A stretch of 64,000 nucleotides of DNA from Ostreococcus lucimarinus (taxonomy: Eukaryota): the NCBI GenBank assembly GCA_000092065.1, contig CP000583.1, one strand, 5' to 3'. Under the pieces are notes generated by a model that saw only the letters and a program-made list of their open reading frames with translations, had not been told where the DNA came from and did no database searches. Numbering within the stretch: position 1 is the first letter of the stretch; the number at the start of each line of letters is the position of its first letter. This document shows, in pieces, positions 42,062-48,322 of the stretch. Made by a program: the position numbers and the translations under genes.

Positions 42062-43126
42062 GTGACGGACGCGCGAGGGATGGGCGCGAAAGATGACGAT
42101 AAGACGCGGTTCATGGCGGTGTTCAGGGAACTCGCGGATGGGTTGGTGCGGGACGAGATCGACGATCGGCAGGTGAAGATCGCGGTGGAGTGGATAAAGC
42201 GGATGATTGATTACAACGTGCCGCACGGGAAGTTGAACCGCGGACTCGCGGTCGTGGACGGCGTGCGAGCGCTGAAGGCGGCGAAGAATGAAACGGTCGA
42301 CGAAGAGGAGCTGAAACGGGCGATGGTGGTTGGATGGTGCATCGAGTTTTTGCAGGCGTACTTCTTGGTTGCGGACGACATCATGGACGAGAGCGTGACG
42401 AGAAGAGGGCAGCCGTGCTGGTACAGGCAGCCGGACGTGAAGATGACGGCGATTAATGACGGTATCTTATTGGAGATGATGCTGTATAAGTGCTTGAAGA
42501 AGTACTGCAAGGGATTGGAGTGTTACGCGGATCTCGTGGAGCTGTTCCACGACGTGACGTACCAAACGGCGAGCGGGCAGTTGATTGATTTAATCACCGC
42601 CCCGATCGGGGTTGTGGATCTCAGTAAGTACACCATGGAGGCGTACATGCGCATTGTGACGTATAAGACGGCTTTCTACACCTTTTACCTTCCGGCGGCG
42701 TGCGCCATGCGATTGTGCGGCGTCAAGGATGAGGCGGCGTACGAAAAGGCGAATGAAATTTGCATCAAGCTCGGGCAGTTTTTCCAAATCCAAGACGATT
42801 ATTTAGACTGCTACGGTGATCCCGAGGTCATTGGTAAGATCGGGACAGATATTCAAGACAACAAGTGCGGCTGGCTCGTCGTTCAAGCGTTGCTCAAGTG
42901 CACCGACGAACAGCGCAAAATCATCGAGGAAAACTACGGAAGAGCCGACGCAGAGTGCGAAAAGAAAATTAAGGCGCTCTACGTGGATCTCGACTTAGAG
43001 GCGACGTACAAAAAGTACGAGGAAGAGTCCTACGCCGACCTTCGATCGATCATGGAGTCGCAGAAGGTTTTGCCGGAGGGTTTGTTTGGCGCGATGTTGG
43101 CGAAAATTTACAAGCGTCAAAAGTAG
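42062..43126 (+). CDS. FPS: Farnesyl diphosphate synthase (trans-isoprenyl diphosphate synthase); true ATG probably at about 42080 (MGAKDDD)
   Basis: First Asp-rich motif LVADDIMDES, second motif FQIQDDYLDCYGDPEVIGKIGTDIQDNKC, KRQK C-terminus. Confidence 0.9.
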   Translation: MTDARGMGAKDDDKTRFMAVFRELADGLVRDEIDDRQVKIAVEWIKRMIDYNVPHGKLNRGLAVVDGVRALKAAKNETVDEEELKRAMVVGWCIEFLQAYFLVADDIMDESVTRRGQPCWYRQPDVKMTAINDGILLEMMLYKCLKKYCKGLECYADLVELFHDVTYQTASGQLIDLITAPIGVVDLSKYTMEAYMRIVTYKTAFYTFYLPAACAMRLCGVKDEAAYEKANEICIKLGQFFQIQDDYLDCYGDPEVIGKIGTDIQDNKCGWLVVQALLKCTDEQRKIIEENYGRADAECEKKIKALYVDLDLEATYKKYEEESYADLRSIMESQKVLPEGLFGAMLAKIYKRQK

Positions 43127-43173
43127 GAGTCGATTTTTTATTAATATCACATTGAAGGGGAACTCAGCGCACA

Positions 43174-44538
43174 CTAGTAATGGTCGATCGACATTGCGGA
43201 TGGCGGGGTACTAAGCATGCTAGAACCACCCGGAGAAGCCTGCATCGCGACCGCGCGCTCGCGACGTTGTCCCTTATTGTTCATGTCCTCCATCGCTTCG
43301 AACAGCTCGTTGTGATATTCCACCACGGTGTCGCGCAGTTCTTCGTACGTGCGCATGAGCCCATCCATATCGCGATTGTGCTCGTCCGTCAACTTCTTCA
43401 TCGCAGCCTCGAGCTCGGCGATTTCCTTTTGATTTTCCAACTCCTTTTGGCGCTGGTGACCAGCTCTCGCTGTTCTCGCGGCGAGCTCCTCCTGCGCTGC
43501 TCGCAGCGCAGCCTCCGCGGCGTCTTTCTTGAGCTTACCTTGGGACTCCATGCGAGCCATTTTTTCTTCCATGGCTTGTTTTTGACGTTGTAACTGCTCC
43601 ATCTTCGCGTCCAACTTCCACGTCTCCTCCTCGGCGGTGGAGACTTCTGCTTCGAGCGCCTTGAGTTTCGCCTTTTGTTCTTCGCCTTCTTTTCTGCTCT
43701 GTTCGATCCCTTTCATGACTTCAATCGTCTCGCGCATCTCCCTTTCCATGCTTTGCAAATAGTTGAATTGCTCCTGCAACTGCGCCTCTTCCCGCTGCCT
43801 CTCCGCCGCAAGTTGCTGCTCGGCACCCTCCTGATTCGCCCTGGCCGCTTTCTCGATTTCAAACTGCTCCTTCAGCCGGTTTTCCTCCTCTATCAACGCT
43901 TGAAGCTCGTTTTCAGACGCCAAAGCGCGCGCTTCTATCTCGCTCGCCTCCAAACTCGCGGCTTCGACCTCGAGTTCAAGCTGCGCCACCTCTCGCGCCA
44001 GGGCGTCTGGGTCGTTCTCGTTCACGAACGCCTCCGCCTCCGCAATCTCCGCCTTCAATCGCTCATTCTCCGCTAATGCCTCCAAATACTTTCTTTCTTC
44101 TTCATCCTTCTCCGCCAGCGCCTCTTCGTACTCGATCAATCGCTCTTCGCGAAATTTCGCAAAGTTGATAATCGCGCTCAAATTCCTCCGCGTGCGCCCG
44201 TACTCGGGCTTAAACACATCCTTCAACGAGAAATCCTCGAGCCCCGCCCCGCGCGCTAAATCTTGCATCGCCCTTATGAACGCCAAATTCGGAATCGCCT
44301 CATCATACAGTTCCGGGTAATCCAACTTCGCGTACGCCTCCTCGTCGATCGCCCCCAGCTCCGCCATCGTCGTCCCAAAGAAAATCTCAATCAGCGTCTC
44401 ATACGCCGGTCTCAGTCCATCGTGCGTCGGTTTCAGCAGATCCGTCTCGCTCAGCGGCACGTCCAGTTCGCGCAGGCACGCGAGAATCTCCGTGTTGCTC
44501 AGGATCGGGAACGAATACGTCGTCTGCGCGTGCGCCAT
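43174..44538 (-). CDS. NUF2: Kinetochore protein NUF2 (NDC80 complex)
   Basis: N-terminus TYSFPILSNTEILACLRELDVPLSETDLLKPTHDGLRPAYETLIEIFFG is the Nuf2 calponin-homology head pattern; remainder is a long E/K/A/L coiled coil. Confidence 0.65.
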   Translation of the reverse strand: MAHAQTTYSFPILSNTEILACLRELDVPLSETDLLKPTHDGLRPAYETLIEIFFGTTMAELGAIDEEAYAKLDYPELYDEAIPNLAFIRAMQDLARGAGLEDFSLKDVFKPEYGRTRRNLSAIINFAKFREERLIEYEEALAEKDEEERKYLEALAENERLKAEIAEAEAFVNENDPDALAREVAQLELEVEAASLEASEIEARALASENELQALIEEENRLKEQFEIEKAARANQEGAEQQLAAERQREEAQLQEQFNYLQSMEREMRETIEVMKGIEQSRKEGEEQKAKLKALEAEVSTAEEETWKLDAKMEQLQRQKQAMEEKMARMESQGKLKKDAAEAALRAAQEELAARTARAGHQRQKELENQKEIAELEAAMKKLTDEHNRDMDGLMRTYEELRDTVVEYHNELFEAMEDMNNKGQRRERAVAMQASPGGSSMLSTPPSAMSIDHY

Positions 44539-44755
44539 GGCGCTTCGAGTTCAAACGTTCAAACGCGATCGTTCGTTCGTTCGTTCGCGTTTCGCGCGCG
44601 TCGTCGCGTCTCTCTCGCGTCGACGCGGACTCGCGGACTCGACGCTCGAATCGCGCGTCGCGCGTCGCGTCGTCGCGCGTCGCGGTCGCCGCGTCGTCGT
44701 GTGCGGTGCGACGGTTGGCGCGCGGGCGCCATCGGGCGACGCGCGACCGCGCGCG

Positions 44756-45856
44756 ATGTCCGTCGAAGACGCCGACGCGCGCGCCGACGACGATGCGAAC
44801 GTCGCGTCGATGGGCGACGCGAGCGCGGCGGCGACGAGGAAAACGCCGCTGAACGCGGAGCAAAAGCGCGCGCTCGTGGACCAGCTCGAATTTTACTTTG
44901 GCGACGCCAACGTCGTGACGGACGCGCATCTGCGAGGGATGATGGACTCGAACGACGATGGGTGGGTGTCGCTCGCGGAGGTGTGCGCGTTTAATCGCAT
45001 GCGGGCGAAGCTGAAGAAACGTCGGTGGGAGGACGTCGCGGCGAACGCCGTTCGCGAGCTCGGGTCCAGCGTCGTCGAAGTATCCGAAGACGGCTGTAGC
45101 ATAAGAAGATTGGAGCCGGTGCCGGATTTCGACGTGGAGGAGATACAGTCTAGGACGGTGGTTGTGGAGAACGCGCGGGAGTTTACGGTGGCGGCGTTGA
45201 GAGCGGAATTCGAGACGTGCGGGGAGGTGCTAAACGTGCGCGTGCGGCAGCCGGGCGGGAAGAAGTGCGACGTGGAAAAGCCGCGCGGGTTAGATTTAAT
45301 CGTGGCGAATTCGAATTCGAATCGCGCGCACGCGTTGGTTGAGTTTAGTTGCATCGCCGAAGCGCAAGGGGCAGTGACGAGGTTGGACAATCCTACCGAC
45401 TGGCGAAATGGTATGCGCGTGCGCGTGTTGCTCAAGCCGGGCCAGAAGAAAAAAGCGAAAAAAGTTCAGAAGGACCCCCCCGCGGCGCTCGAGGATGGCG
45501 GTGACGGAGAGAAAGCAGATGGTGAGGGCGATGAGGGTGATGGAGAGAAAGCGGAGGGCGAGGCCACAACGAAAAAGTCCAAGAAGAAGAAGAAATCCAA
45601 GCCTGATTATTCCAAATGGGCCTCCGCCGCCGCTTTCCGCGAGAACAAGATGACGATCACCAGCCTCGGCGGCGATGACGAAGCGACGGATGGTAACTCG
45701 GGAGAATCACTCGAGGACGCGCTTCCCAAAAAGTTGGTTTTGACGCCGCGAAGTCCAACCATGCCAGACGGCTCGCCAGGCTTCACACGAAAGCGAACGG
45801 TCACTCCAACGATAGACATCGCCAAAGAAGCCCACGATAATGGCGGCGGTGAATAG
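44756..45856 (+). CDS. La-motif + RRM protein (genuine La / LARP7-type)
   Basis: La motif QKRALVDQLEFYFGDANVVTDAHLRGMMDSNDDGWVSLAEVCAFNRMRAKL; RRM TVVVENAREFTVAALRAEFETCGEVLNVRV...; lysine-rich tail. Confidence 0.65.
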   Translation: MSVEDADARADDDANVASMGDASAAATRKTPLNAEQKRALVDQLEFYFGDANVVTDAHLRGMMDSNDDGWVSLAEVCAFNRMRAKLKKRRWEDVAANAVRELGSSVVEVSEDGCSIRRLEPVPDFDVEEIQSRTVVVENAREFTVAALRAEFETCGEVLNVRVRQPGGKKCDVEKPRGLDLIVANSNSNRAHALVEFSCIAEAQGAVTRLDNPTDWRNGMRVRVLLKPGQKKKAKKVQKDPPAALEDGGDGEKADGEGDEGDGEKAEGEATTKKSKKKKKSKPDYSKWASAAAFRENKMTITSLGGDDEATDGNSGESLEDALPKKLVLTPRSPTMPDGSPGFTRKRTVTPTIDIAKEAHDNGGGE

Positions 45857-45906
45857 ATTCGATGCTATAATATTCGACATAGGTTTACAAGGCGGTAAAT
45901 TAACAC

Positions 45907-46968
45907 TTAGCCGACGTTAGCGTCAGTGAGTGAAGCGCACGTGCACTGACCCGCGCTCGTCAGCATCGGTAGCCCGTTCCAATTCGCTCCTTTCGTCGCA
46001 TCCGTCTTCAAATCTTTTTGAACACCCTCCCATATCTTCTTTTTCGCAACTTTATTGACGCCGTGCGGCTCGATATTCTCCGCGCCATCCCATGTGATGC
46101 GTTCGCCTGGCACGGCGCCTTCCGGAGCGCAGAGCAACTCAACATTTTCGTGCGCTGCATCGGATGCGGCTAAGAGCATACCGTTCGACTTCATCCCAGC
46201 CATATTACGTGGCTTTAAGTTCGCCACGACGATGACGAGTTTGCCTAAAACGTCGTCTTTGCTCATGTATGGCGCTAAACCAGAGCAAATGAGACGCGGT
46301 TCGTCCTCTCCGCACTCGACCATCTCAACGTATAGTTTCTCACTCTCGGGATGATTTTCTACGCTCAACACCTTACCAACCTTAAGTTCCATTCCGAGCA
46401 ACTCCTCATTCGGCGTCACAGCGGACGACGCCGATGCAGTCGTCGTCGTCGACGGTTCGTCGACGCTCGTCGCTCCTGGTCCAAAATCTGTCCCGACGCT
46501 TCCGCCCACCGCCGGTACCTTGATGAATTTCCCGTCCCAGTGCGCGCTCTCTTTCATCATCCTCTCAACGTCTTCAAAATACTCCGGTTCGTCGTCTCGC
46601 ATCCAGTCATCCGCCATGAGCCCCTCCCGTCCCGGCGCCTCGTACTCTTCCGCGTTCGACAAGTCAATCTCTCTCAACTTTCCGAACCATTTCACGATCT
46701 CGTGCACCTTGGGCGTCCAGTCTTCGATTTCCTCGTCCGTGATGTCGATTGCCGCCATCTTCGCCAGCTCGCGCAGGTCTGGGAGCGGCGGGAGCGGCGG
46801 GAGATCGCTCTCTGGGACCCTCTTGACGGACGCGTGAGAACCCTGGAGCGGGGTTGAGTTGGGGTCGAACGCGCGCGCGCGGGACGAACGACGCGTGGCG
46901 CGCGCGCGAAGCGGAGCAAGAAGCAGTTCTGCACGCGCTAACATCGCAGCTAGTCGACGAAGCGTCAA
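45907..46968 (-). CDS. Transit peptide + GatC-like domain + C-terminal EMAPII/Myf-type tRNA-binding (OB-fold) domain
   Basis: GatC-like: AAIDITDEEIEDWTPKVHEIVKWFGKLREIDLSNAEEYEAPGREGLMADDWMRDDEPEYF...GKFIKVPA (GatC Pfam pattern ...LsEEE...l..i...L.evD...ve.......lReDe....f.VP). tRNA-binding: MELKVGKVLSVENHPESEKLYVEMVECGEDEPRLICSGLAPYMSKDDVLGKLVIVVANLKPRNMAGMKSNGMLLAAS. Confidence 0.55.
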   Translation of the reverse strand: MTLRRLAAMLARAELLLAPLRARATRRSSRARAFDPNSTPLQGSHASVKRVPESDLPPLPPLPDLRELAKMAAIDITDEEIEDWTPKVHEIVKWFGKLREIDLSNAEEYEAPGREGLMADDWMRDDEPEYFEDVERMMKESAHWDGKFIKVPAVGGSVGTDFGPGATSVDEPSTTTTASASSAVTPNEELLGMELKVGKVLSVENHPESEKLYVEMVECGEDEPRLICSGLAPYMSKDDVLGKLVIVVANLKPRNMAGMKSNGMLLAASDAAHENVELLCAPEGAVPGERITWDGAENIEPHGVNKVAKKKIWEGVQKDLKTDATKGANWNGLPMLTSAGQCTCASLTDANVG

Positions 46969-47160: not shown

Positions 47161-48322
47161 ATGGTGCGAATCACGCTGGAGCTTTTGCGGCGGCGCGCCG
47201 AACACAACGACGGCGCGCTGTTCACGCTCGAGGAAGTGGCGCTGCATCAGCAAGGCATAGAGCGGTTAGAGGTGCTTCAAGAAGCGTGTCCGAAGCTGAA
47301 AATTGTGTTGCTCCACGATAACTTGATCCCAAAGATAGGTGCGGCGTTCTGGCGCTCGCGTGGTGCGCGCTTGTTGACTGACAGCGAGACGCCACGCTCT
47401 CATAGAAAACGTGCGCAAACTCAAGGCGATGGAGTACTTGAACCTGGCGATGAATAATGTGACGACCATAGAAAACTTGGAGAAATGCGAGTCGCTGGTC
47501 AAGCTTGATCTCACCATGAATTTCATCACGCTCAAAGGGTTGCTGAAACTGGACCGACTCGCGGTCAACCATAGTTTAAGGCAGCTGTTCTTGATGGGGA
47601 ATCCGTGCGCGGATTTCGAAGGATATCGCTCGTTTGTCATCGGAACGTTGCCGCAGCTCACCCACGTCGATGGCACGGACGTCACACACGTAGAGCGAAT
47701 AATCGCAAGGCAGCACTTGCGGCGCATCACTGAAGATTTGGAGAAGGCCGCTGCCGCCGAGACGGCGACGACGGTCAGCGTGGACGAAATCGCGTCAATA
47801 GAACCCGACGCACGTCCGTGGTGCGCGGCGACTCGCATTCTCGATAATGAAGTCAAAATGACCACATCGTCCTCAATGAAACAGCCGCAAAATCATTTCG
47901 ACGACGCCCGTGATGCATTCGATGTACTTCCAGACGACATCGCCGACGTCAAGCAGAAGAATCAAGGCGATTTCGATTTCAAGCTCACCGATTCTGAGGA
48001 TGAAACTTCGATAGAACTCGAGATTAAAGTCGGTACCATCATCGACACCTCACTCATCCACGTCGATATTCATCCAAAGTTGGTGCGCGTGAAAATCAAA
48101 GGCGAGTTGTTGCAGCTGAAGCTCTCGCACGAAGTGGCCACAGACGCGAGCGTCGCCGAACGCTCAAAAGCGACGGGCAAGCTTCTGATCACAATGCCTA
48201 AACTAAACTGGCATTTGAAACCTAAATCAGTCGTAAGGGGAGACCCAAAAATCCGAGATCATCACGCAAGAGTGACCTACCACCGCGCGGAGAACGACGA
48301 ACCGCCCGATGTGATTTGCTAA
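47161..48322 (+). CDS. LRRC6: TilB/LRRC6 (Seahorse) homolog, axonemal dynein-arm assembly factor with LRR + LRRcap + CS domain; 2 exons, intron 47339..47405 (67 nt)
   Basis: MVRITLELLRRRAEHNDGALFTLEEVALHQQGIERLEVLQEACPKLKIVLLHDNLIPKI|ENVRKLKAMEYLNLAMNNVTTIENLEKCESLVKLDLTMNFI...LFLMGNPCADFEGYRSFVIGTLPQLTHVDG is near-colinear with human LRRC6; CS domain IIDTSLIHVDIHPKLVRVKIKGELLQLKL. ORFs 47161..47457 and 47411..48322 are joined by a phase-1 intron (ag|GT...catag). Confidence 0.8.

Follow-up and report, generated by a model that had tools for sequence, protein, structure and literature searches.

The 64,000-nucleotide stretch of the Ostreococcus lucimarinus genome analysed here (assembly GCA_000092065.1, contig CP000583.1), called the window below, carries on its minus strand a gene whose product joins two domains: a GatC domain, named after the C subunit of the tRNA-dependent amidotransferase GatCAB, and a tRNA-binding unit of the EMAPII type (Table 1). 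In the list of open reading frames (ORFs) and in the translation, 45907..46968 is a single uninterrupted frame. The program that listed the ORFs opens this frame at a TTG codon, eight codons upstream of the first ATG at 46944. Because the organism is a eukaryote, this ATG was taken as the real start. It gives a protein of 345 amino acids with the N-terminus MLARAELLL, and not one of 353 amino acids as counted in an earlier, sequence-only reading of the window; the motifs quoted in that reading are all present in the translation. Residues are numbered throughout on the 345-residue protein, and the domain coordinates were checked by translation. Both domains are expressed from a single transcript: an MMETSP transcript ORF marked as complete (P0125) encodes 345 amino acids with one substitution relative to the window protein. 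Two metagenome proteins (P0001 and P0121) match the product in length and sequence, the latter being present on 59 contigs.

The sole protein annotated at this locus in the public O. lucimarinus CCE9901 genome is a 'predicted protein' of 161 amino acids (XP_001416935.1 / ABO95228.1, here P0149), which is an exact substring of the window product from Met185 onwards. This model covers only 45907..46461 of the minus strand and leaves out the whole GatC half, an annotation that the gene described here corrects. Initiation at Met185 as the source of the main product, as in the public model, was rejected because this methionine is not conserved and because full-length transcripts exist. The O. tauri orthologue (XP_003078155.2, P0163), with 350 amino acids and about 70% identity, is modelled at full length and carries the name 'Aspartyl/glutamyl-tRNA(Asn/Gln) amidotransferase, C subunit'. 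Among the members of the homologous clusters, names given by metagenome pipelines are inconsistent and include 'AIMP1', 'MetRS beta chain' (MetRS, methionyl-tRNA synthetase) and 'GatC'.

Table 1. Features of the GatC-EMAPII gene, with positions in the window and residues of the 345-amino-acid product.
Feature	Residues	Positions	Strand	Basis
Intronless complete coding sequence, GatC-EMAPII fusion (345 amino acids; stop codon 45907..45909)	1-345	45907..46944	-	ORF list, translation, matches to P0125/P0001/P0121
Presequence-like N-terminal region, putative organellar targeting peptide	1-50	46795..46944	-	Translation, composition
GatC domain, including R116/D118 of 'MRDDEP' and the terminal 'FIKVPAV' strand	51-146	46507..46794	-	Pfam, profile against solved GatCs, AlphaFold2 model
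Ser/Thr/Gly/Ala low-complexity linker	147-176	46417..46506	-	Predicted local distance difference test (pLDDT), identity among homologues
Trbp111/EMAPII-type OB-fold tRNA-binding domain	177-283	46096..46416	-	Pfam, PDB sequence matches, Foldseek, pLDDT
Predicted tRNA 3'-terminal CA pocket, K244-P-R246-N-M-A249-G-M-K-S253-N-G-M256	244-256	46177..46215	-	Motif spacing against Trbp111
EMAPII-specific C-terminal subdomain	284-345	45910..46095	-	Alignment to 1NTG/1EUJ runs to the last residues; unit superposes

The first domain is a complete GatC domain. The Pfam family PF02686 (GatC) matches the window protein over its full model (positions 1-66 of 66) with 33.6 bits (cutoff 23) and an E-value of 4.6e-8, and the other fusions reach 28-53 bits. 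A GatC-domain profile was built from 14 fusion proteins (alignment A2) and compared with four solved bacterial GatCs, which it matched over nearly their full length: A. aeolicus 3H0L_C with an E-value of 3.2e-12 (residues 9-91 of 94), S. aureus 2DF4_C with 1.6e-6, P. aeruginosa 4WJ3_C with 7.2e-6 and T. maritima 3AL0_C with 1.4e-5. In this comparison the 'lReDe' and 'f.vPkv' elements of the solved GatCs align with MRDDEP and FIKVPAV of the window protein. R116, D118, F123 and V143 show little or no variation among the fusion proteins, and the AlphaFold2 (AF2) model places helices at residues 57-63 and 70-90. These results bear out the sequence-only reading, in which the region had been said to follow the GatC profile. 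A GST-like N-domain of the Arc1p type was considered in its place and rejected, as neither Pfam nor NCBIfam gave a GST match and a clear GatC match was obtained instead.

Used alone as query in a word-indexed search, the GatC domain returned three fragments and was uninformative. An exhaustive profile search of 1.84 billion representative proteins was used instead, and it returned 5408 proteins at E <= 0.001. After the fusions came a tier of proteins of 120-170 amino acids that carry the domain at the C-terminus, followed by bacterial GatCs of about 95 amino acids. The named members of the second tier are GatCs of the green lineage, from Linum, Citrus, Vanilla and Klebsormidium ('chloroplastic/mitochondrial') as well as from Mesostigma, Nannochloris and a pedinophyte. 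Because of the matches in Pfam, to the solved GatCs and in the exhaustive search, the N-terminal domain is regarded as a genuine, vertically inherited organellar GatC. At the top of the exhaustive search stood a protein of 3678 amino acids (P0252) in which positions 41-80 of the profile were matched 30 times over short stretches, and which is probably a repetitive or low-complexity artefact. In a protein of 399 amino acids (P0330) an EamA transporter domain is joined to a GatC domain at the C-terminus, either because two genes were merged in the model or, perhaps, as a further fusion of GatC.

The second domain was identified with higher scores. PF01588 (tRNA_bind) reaches 96.8 bits (cutoff 27, E 8.4e-28) over model positions 1-95 of 96. 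Residues 185-344 align to residues 10-169 of the EMAPII-like domain of human tyrosyl-tRNA synthetase (TyrRS; 1NTG) with an E-value of 7e-33, and the alignment of the C-terminal unit to EMAPII/AIMP1 reaches 1e-28. Further matches to PDB sequences comprise the TyrRS C-terminal domain (TyrRS-C), EMAPII, Arc1p and Trbp111. The AF2 model, whose pLDDT exceeds 90 in this unit, superposes on 1NTG with a template modelling (TM) score of 0.90 and a root-mean-square deviation of 1.5 A. Across 1NTG, 1EUJ, P. vivax p43-C and Arc1p-C the TM scores of the model are 0.86-0.94. Foldseek gave 0.85-0.94 against structures of TyrRS-C, EMAPII, Arc1p and Trbp111, and 0.88-0.94 over 164-170 columns against 1NTG, 1EUJ, 5ZKG and 4R1J. 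The unit is thus the complete monomeric EMAPII form, consisting of the OB fold and the C-terminal subdomain, as opposed to the shorter Trbp111 form; the C-terminal subdomain is a mimic of the interface through which Trbp111 dimerises (PMC11286949). The complete Myf/EMAPII/Arc1p-type domain proposed from the sequence is therefore present in both its subdomains. The NCBIfam model of YtpR (NF045760) scores 18.8 bits against a cutoff of 100, so the protein shares the fold superfamily with YtpR and is not a member of that family.

How such a fold binds RNA is known from a 2024 co-crystal structure, in which the Trbp111/EMAPII OB fold captures the single-stranded 3'-terminal CA of tRNA, not the tRNA elbow, through K33, R75, F78, S82 and M85 (PMC11286949). 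The terminal cis-diol is not recognised by the fold, and adducts at the 3' end are tolerated; from this tolerance the authors suggest that it may accommodate, and even protect, aminoacyl-tRNA. It binds the 3' CA of any tRNA with a micromolar affinity that suits hand-over to a catalytic site, and it lowers the Km for tRNA when appended to synthetases (PMC11286949). In the window protein the segment K244...M256 corresponds by motif spacing, rather than by superposition, to K73-P74-R75...F78...S82...M85 of Trbp111, and would form the equivalent pocket. None of K203, R246, S253 and M256 varies across 23 fusion proteins. The sequence-only reading had spoken of a 'tRNA anchor'. The tRNA-binding fold stands, while the co-crystal structure makes the OB fold a '3'-end catcher' rather than an anchor (PMC11286949).

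The two domains are preceded by a region that resembles an organellar presequence and are separated by a variable linker. Residues 1-33 contain seven Arg, seven Ala, six Leu and one acidic residue and carry a net charge of +5. The identity of the N-terminal region among homologues is 2-50%, which makes it the least conserved part of the protein after the linker. A poorly conserved N-terminus rich in Arg, Ala and Ser is typical of organellar presequences, and the transit-peptide-like character noted in the sequence-only reading holds in these terms; from its composition, the region probably directs the protein to an organelle. In the linker, identity is 30-47% among Ostreococcus proteins and drops to 3-23% in the rest of the Mamiellales. 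The corresponding values are 73-79% and 41-51% for the GatC domain, and 81-91% and 60-68% for the EMAPII unit. The pLDDT falls below 50 at residues 136-174, which predicts disorder, and in homologues the spacer, counted from the point where the GatC domain stops up to the conserved 'LLGM' with which the EMAPII unit starts, varies between 20 and 55 residues. Conservation of the two domains together with variation of the linker therefore describes two constrained domains on a flexible tether. In the fusions of Mamiellales other than Ostreococcus (P0012, P0017, P0023; clusters P0010-P0027), a conserved motif, 'PLEERLAxALxEDTxLPxNPNPL', lies just upstream of the GatC domain and is not found in Ostreococcus; it was read from columns about 150-215 of the fusion-protein alignment (A1). 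In one subgroup of these proteins a further conserved stretch, about 60 residues long, is inserted ('NPEWAKHWIDGEMPDGVDRELEAALLE...').

The fusion is conserved well beyond the window. About 30 clusters of proteins from marine metagenomes and transcriptomes, one of which includes the O. tauri protein P0163, contain both Pfam domains; the Mamiellales clusters P0010-P0027 are roughly 50% identical to the window protein. As both domains are conserved across more than 30 homologous clusters and the linker is not, the association lies far beyond chance. P0010, encoded on an 893-kb metagenome contig, is regarded as the orthologue in a related genome, probably of the Mamiellales, because gene order is shared. 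The GatC-EMAPII gene, a convergent La-domain gene and a polyprenyl synthase gene are kept in both (42062..46944 in the window, 3001..7016 in L001). In the window a Nuf2 gene lies between the La-domain and polyprenyl synthase genes.

Outside the Mamiellophyceae, a search with the Volvox protein found the fusion in Volvox, Pleodorina, Astrephomene, Gonium, Chlamydomonas reinhardtii (CHLRE_08g364650v5 / Cre08.g364650), C. incerta and C. eustigma, and further in Edaphochlamys, Monoraphidium, Dunaliella, Haematococcus and the ulvophyte Bryopsis. The exhaustive search added a fusion in Volvox africanus and a truncated model from Tetrabaena. In total, at least 12 named Chlorophyceae and Bryopsis carry the fusion, for which UniRef gives the name GatC. 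Besides the fusion, these Chlorophyceae have a second protein, about 250 amino acids long, in which an EMAPII unit alone follows a transit-peptide-like N-terminus. Streptophytes, Trebouxiophyceae, Ulva and Ostreobium have only the free EMAPII form among the matches listed, and a free GatC was found in streptophytes, Nannochloris and a pedinophyte. The Trebouxiophyceae, Pedinophyceae and streptophytes thus have an unfused GatC next to a free organelle-type EMAPII protein. A neighbour-joining tree of the EMAPII domains (100 bootstraps) left a single versus a multiple origin of the fusion undecided, with poor deep nodes and some unreliable supports after re-rooting. This undecided tree and the patchy distribution (present in Mamiellophyceae, Chlorophyceae and Bryopsis, and not in Trebouxiophyceae, pedinophytes or streptophytes) make more than one fusion event possible. 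If the fusion did arise repeatedly, the functional link between GatCAB and the EMAPII unit would be stronger.

The architecture, which the sequence-only reading had called unusual, is indeed so when set against bacteria, animals and land plants. O. lucimarinus is no isolated case, however: the architecture is widespread in chlorophyte algae. Organellar GatCs of land plants such as Linum (P0266), Citrus (P0265) and Klebsormidium (P0269) are the nearest unfused relatives of the window GatC domain, with E-values of about 1e-19 to 1e-20 in the exhaustive search. Like the window protein with its putative presequence, they carry a targeting peptide in front of a GatC domain that spans about 95 residues. 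They end right after 'VRVPKV' at a length of 120-170 amino acids, whereas the window protein runs on into the linker and an EMAPII unit of 169 residues. The bacterial GatCs 3H0L, 2DF4, 4WJ3 and 3AL0 align over their full length with the window domain but are free-standing proteins of 94-104 amino acids. Only in 3AL0_C, a construct engineered for crystallisation, is a C-terminal linker followed by a partner, glutamyl-tRNA synthetase (GluRS). This 'GatC-linker-GluRS' chain belongs to the T. maritima transamidosome entry, and the C-terminus of GatC therefore tolerates a tethered partner.

The counterparts of the second domain are found in several contexts. Free EMAPII-like proteins of Viridiplantae, of the At3g59980 type, are 48-56% identical to the window unit (Papaver P0031, Marchantia P0103, Chlorella P0473 and Volvox P0460). 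They too have a transit-peptide-like N-terminus in front of the unit, but no GatC domain and no reported function. For Arabidopsis At3g59980 the N-terminus has been mapped to residue 76, which fits the loss of a transit peptide (PMC5947142). EMAPII/Trbp111 domains on plant and bacterial MetRS, human TyrRS, Arc1p and AIMP1, which gave the best PDB matches here, have the same fold and act in cis as non-specific 3'-end binders (PMC11286949). Whereas these known hosts are synthetases or hubs of multi-synthetase complexes, in the window the host belongs to an amidotransferase, as a scaffold subunit without catalytic function. The hosts compiled in the same work (MetRS, phenylalanyl-tRNA synthetase (PheRS), TyrRS, Arc1p, AIMP1 and tRip) comprise no GatC and no amidotransferase (PMC11286949). 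The closest parallel to the fusion is the non-covalent contact between GatB and YtpR in B. subtilis. This free tRNA_bind protein was found at GatB by in-cell cross-linking mass spectrometry and AlphaFold-Multimer, and its authors speculated that it presents Glu-tRNAGln to GatCAB (PMC10090944). The integrative YtpR-GatB model 9a77 is among the Foldseek matches of the window protein. As in B. subtilis, a PF01588 OB fold would in the alga be physically associated with GatCAB. In contrast to the fusion to GatC, the contact of YtpR is non-covalent and to GatB, and YtpR belongs to the bacterial PheT-N/YtpR branch. A literature search for a GatC/EMAPII fusion found no description of one; the fusion is automatically named GatC in several genomes (O. 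tauri, Chlamydomonas), yet we found no paper that describes it.

To our knowledge, plant and algal organelles form Gln-tRNAGln by the indirect route only. How the labile, mischarged Glu-tRNAGln is kept off the ribosome and delivered to GatB is the long-standing 'transamidosome' problem. Our favoured interpretation, to which we give a probability of roughly 0.65, is that the window protein is the GatC subunit of an organellar GatCAB whose tethered domain catches the 3'-CCA end of tRNA and passes Glu-tRNAGln to GatB. The precursor would be imported into plastids and/or mitochondria by means of its N-terminal targeting peptide. The GatC domain would then wrap and stabilise the interface of GatA and GatB, as GatC does elsewhere, and a disordered tether of about 30 residues would join it to the monomeric EMAPII-like OB-fold unit. 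Since the EMAPII fold binds the 3' CA of any tRNA and tolerates adducts, the tethered unit would most likely raise the local tRNA concentration at the enzyme. It would catch the acceptor end of Glu-tRNAGln as this leaves the non-discriminating GluRS and deliver it to the active site of GatB. With such a hand-over the apparent Km would fall, and less of the mischarged species would escape or be hydrolysed. The unit might also shield the labile ester or aid the release of Gln-tRNAGln.

An organellar setting is consistent with work on the Chlamydomonas orthologue Cre08.g364650, which was detected by mass spectrometry on chloroplast ribosomes, in a heat-response cluster (B) that it shares with GatA/GAT1 (PMC8894945). 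In Table 1 of that study the protein is listed as 'Methionyl tRNA synthase', presumably because of its tRNA_bind domain, and this label hides its identity as a GatC.

Several points weigh against the favoured interpretation. The shared cluster of Cre08.g364650 and GatA denotes a similar heat response in ribosome pulldowns and not a demonstrated complex. The NCBIfam equivalog TIGR00135 covers positions 5-91 of 93 with 38.7 bits, below its cutoff of 47.1; this model is meant for genomes of bacteria and archaea. On their own, EMAPII domains have a low affinity for tRNA, 20-40 uM (PMC11286949). In addition, F78 of Trbp111, which stacks on C75 of the tRNA (PMC11286949), corresponds to residue 249 (46201..46203, minus strand), which is Ala in the window protein and Gly in O. 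tauri. The Mamiellophyceae fusions have Ala or Gly at this position, and the chlorophycean fusions, the free plant proteins and human EMAPII have Arg; the equivalent residue of Arc1p is R274. With Ala or Gly, the CA end may therefore be bound less tightly, and judging from this substitution the specificity or affinity for the 3' end may be altered.

Of the alternatives, the one that keeps the most weight, though it is itself improbable, is that one ORF gives rise to two mature proteins, either through an internal start at Met185 or through proteolysis of the linker after import, so that the fusion would serve as a device for co-expression. The public model starts exactly at Met185, the linker is disordered and exposed in the AF2 model, and plants and Trebouxiophyceae do have two separate organelle-targeted proteins. 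Met185, however, is Phe in P0321, and P0030, P0338, all Chlorophyceae and Bryopsis have no Met at this position. An EMAPII half that began there would be without a targeting peptide, the linker contains no conserved motif for a cleavage site, and the ORFs from transcripts and metagenomes are full length.

Unlikely as well, and second among the alternatives, is a free canonical GatC encoded elsewhere that serves GatCAB, in which case the fusion would act in organelles as a tRNA chaperone or as a cofactor of the AIMP1 type, with a GatC-derived domain re-used for docking another partner. The sub-cutoff score of TIGR00135 would fit this reading. So would the second, free EMAPII paralogue kept by the Chlorophyceae, which means that gene duplication has occurred in the EMAPII family. 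Against this, the GatC domain is complete, keeps R116, D118, F123 and V143 and is 41-79% identical across the Mamiellophyceae. In O. tauri and the Chlorophyceae, RefSeq and UniRef give the name GatC only to fusions among the matches listed. The named free GatCs among these matches come without exception from lineages in which no fusion was seen, namely Trebouxiophyceae, a pedinophyte and streptophytes.

We consider it very unlikely that the EMAPII unit has a role apart from tRNA, as a CsaA-like export chaperone or a released signalling fragment, and that its link to GatC is incidental. The fold is indeed shared with CsaA chaperones and the EMAPII cytokine. The E-values to the tRNA-binding domains of EMAPII, TyrRS-C and Arc1p are, however, 1e-33 to 1e-19, as against 8e-6 or worse to CsaA; moreover, the residues of the A76 pocket (R246, S253 and M256) are invariant, and three algal classes repeatedly show the domain joined to an enzyme that modifies tRNA. 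The public annotation, in which only the 3' half appears as a gene, might raise the suspicion of an artefact, be it a chance ORF, an assembly join or wrongly merged genes. This is refuted by the single uninterrupted frame, by a protein of identical length that recurs on 59 independent contigs (P0121) and is also found in a transcriptome (P0125), and by the same architecture in dozens of species.

The interest of the fusion comes mainly from linking GatCAB to a cofactor that binds the 3' end of tRNA, as YtpR-GatB does. A natural GatC with its own 3'-end catcher would offer an experimental handle on the delivery of Glu-tRNAGln. The fusion suggests a candidate function for the uncharacterised organellar EMAPII-like protein of plants, and it would provide independent eukaryotic support for the YtpR-GatB partnership proposed in bacteria. 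A wider rule is possible, with the odds leaning against it: GatCAB may generally be partnered with a 3'-end-binding Trbp111/EMAPII domain that shuttles or protects the mischarged end, placed on GatC in many chlorophytes and supplied in trans by the At3g59980-type protein in land plants and by YtpR in bacteria.

Upstream of the fusion gene and divergent from it lies a leucine-rich repeat (LRR) protein on the plus strand, in two parts at 47161..47457 and 47411..48322. It has the CS domain (PF23602, E 5.8e-27) of dynein axonemal assembly factor 11 (LRRC6/tilB-like). Ostreococcus, as far as we know, has no flagellum, hence such a neighbour is odd. The LRR part at its N-terminus is read in another frame, pointing to an intron or a frameshift near 47411-47457.

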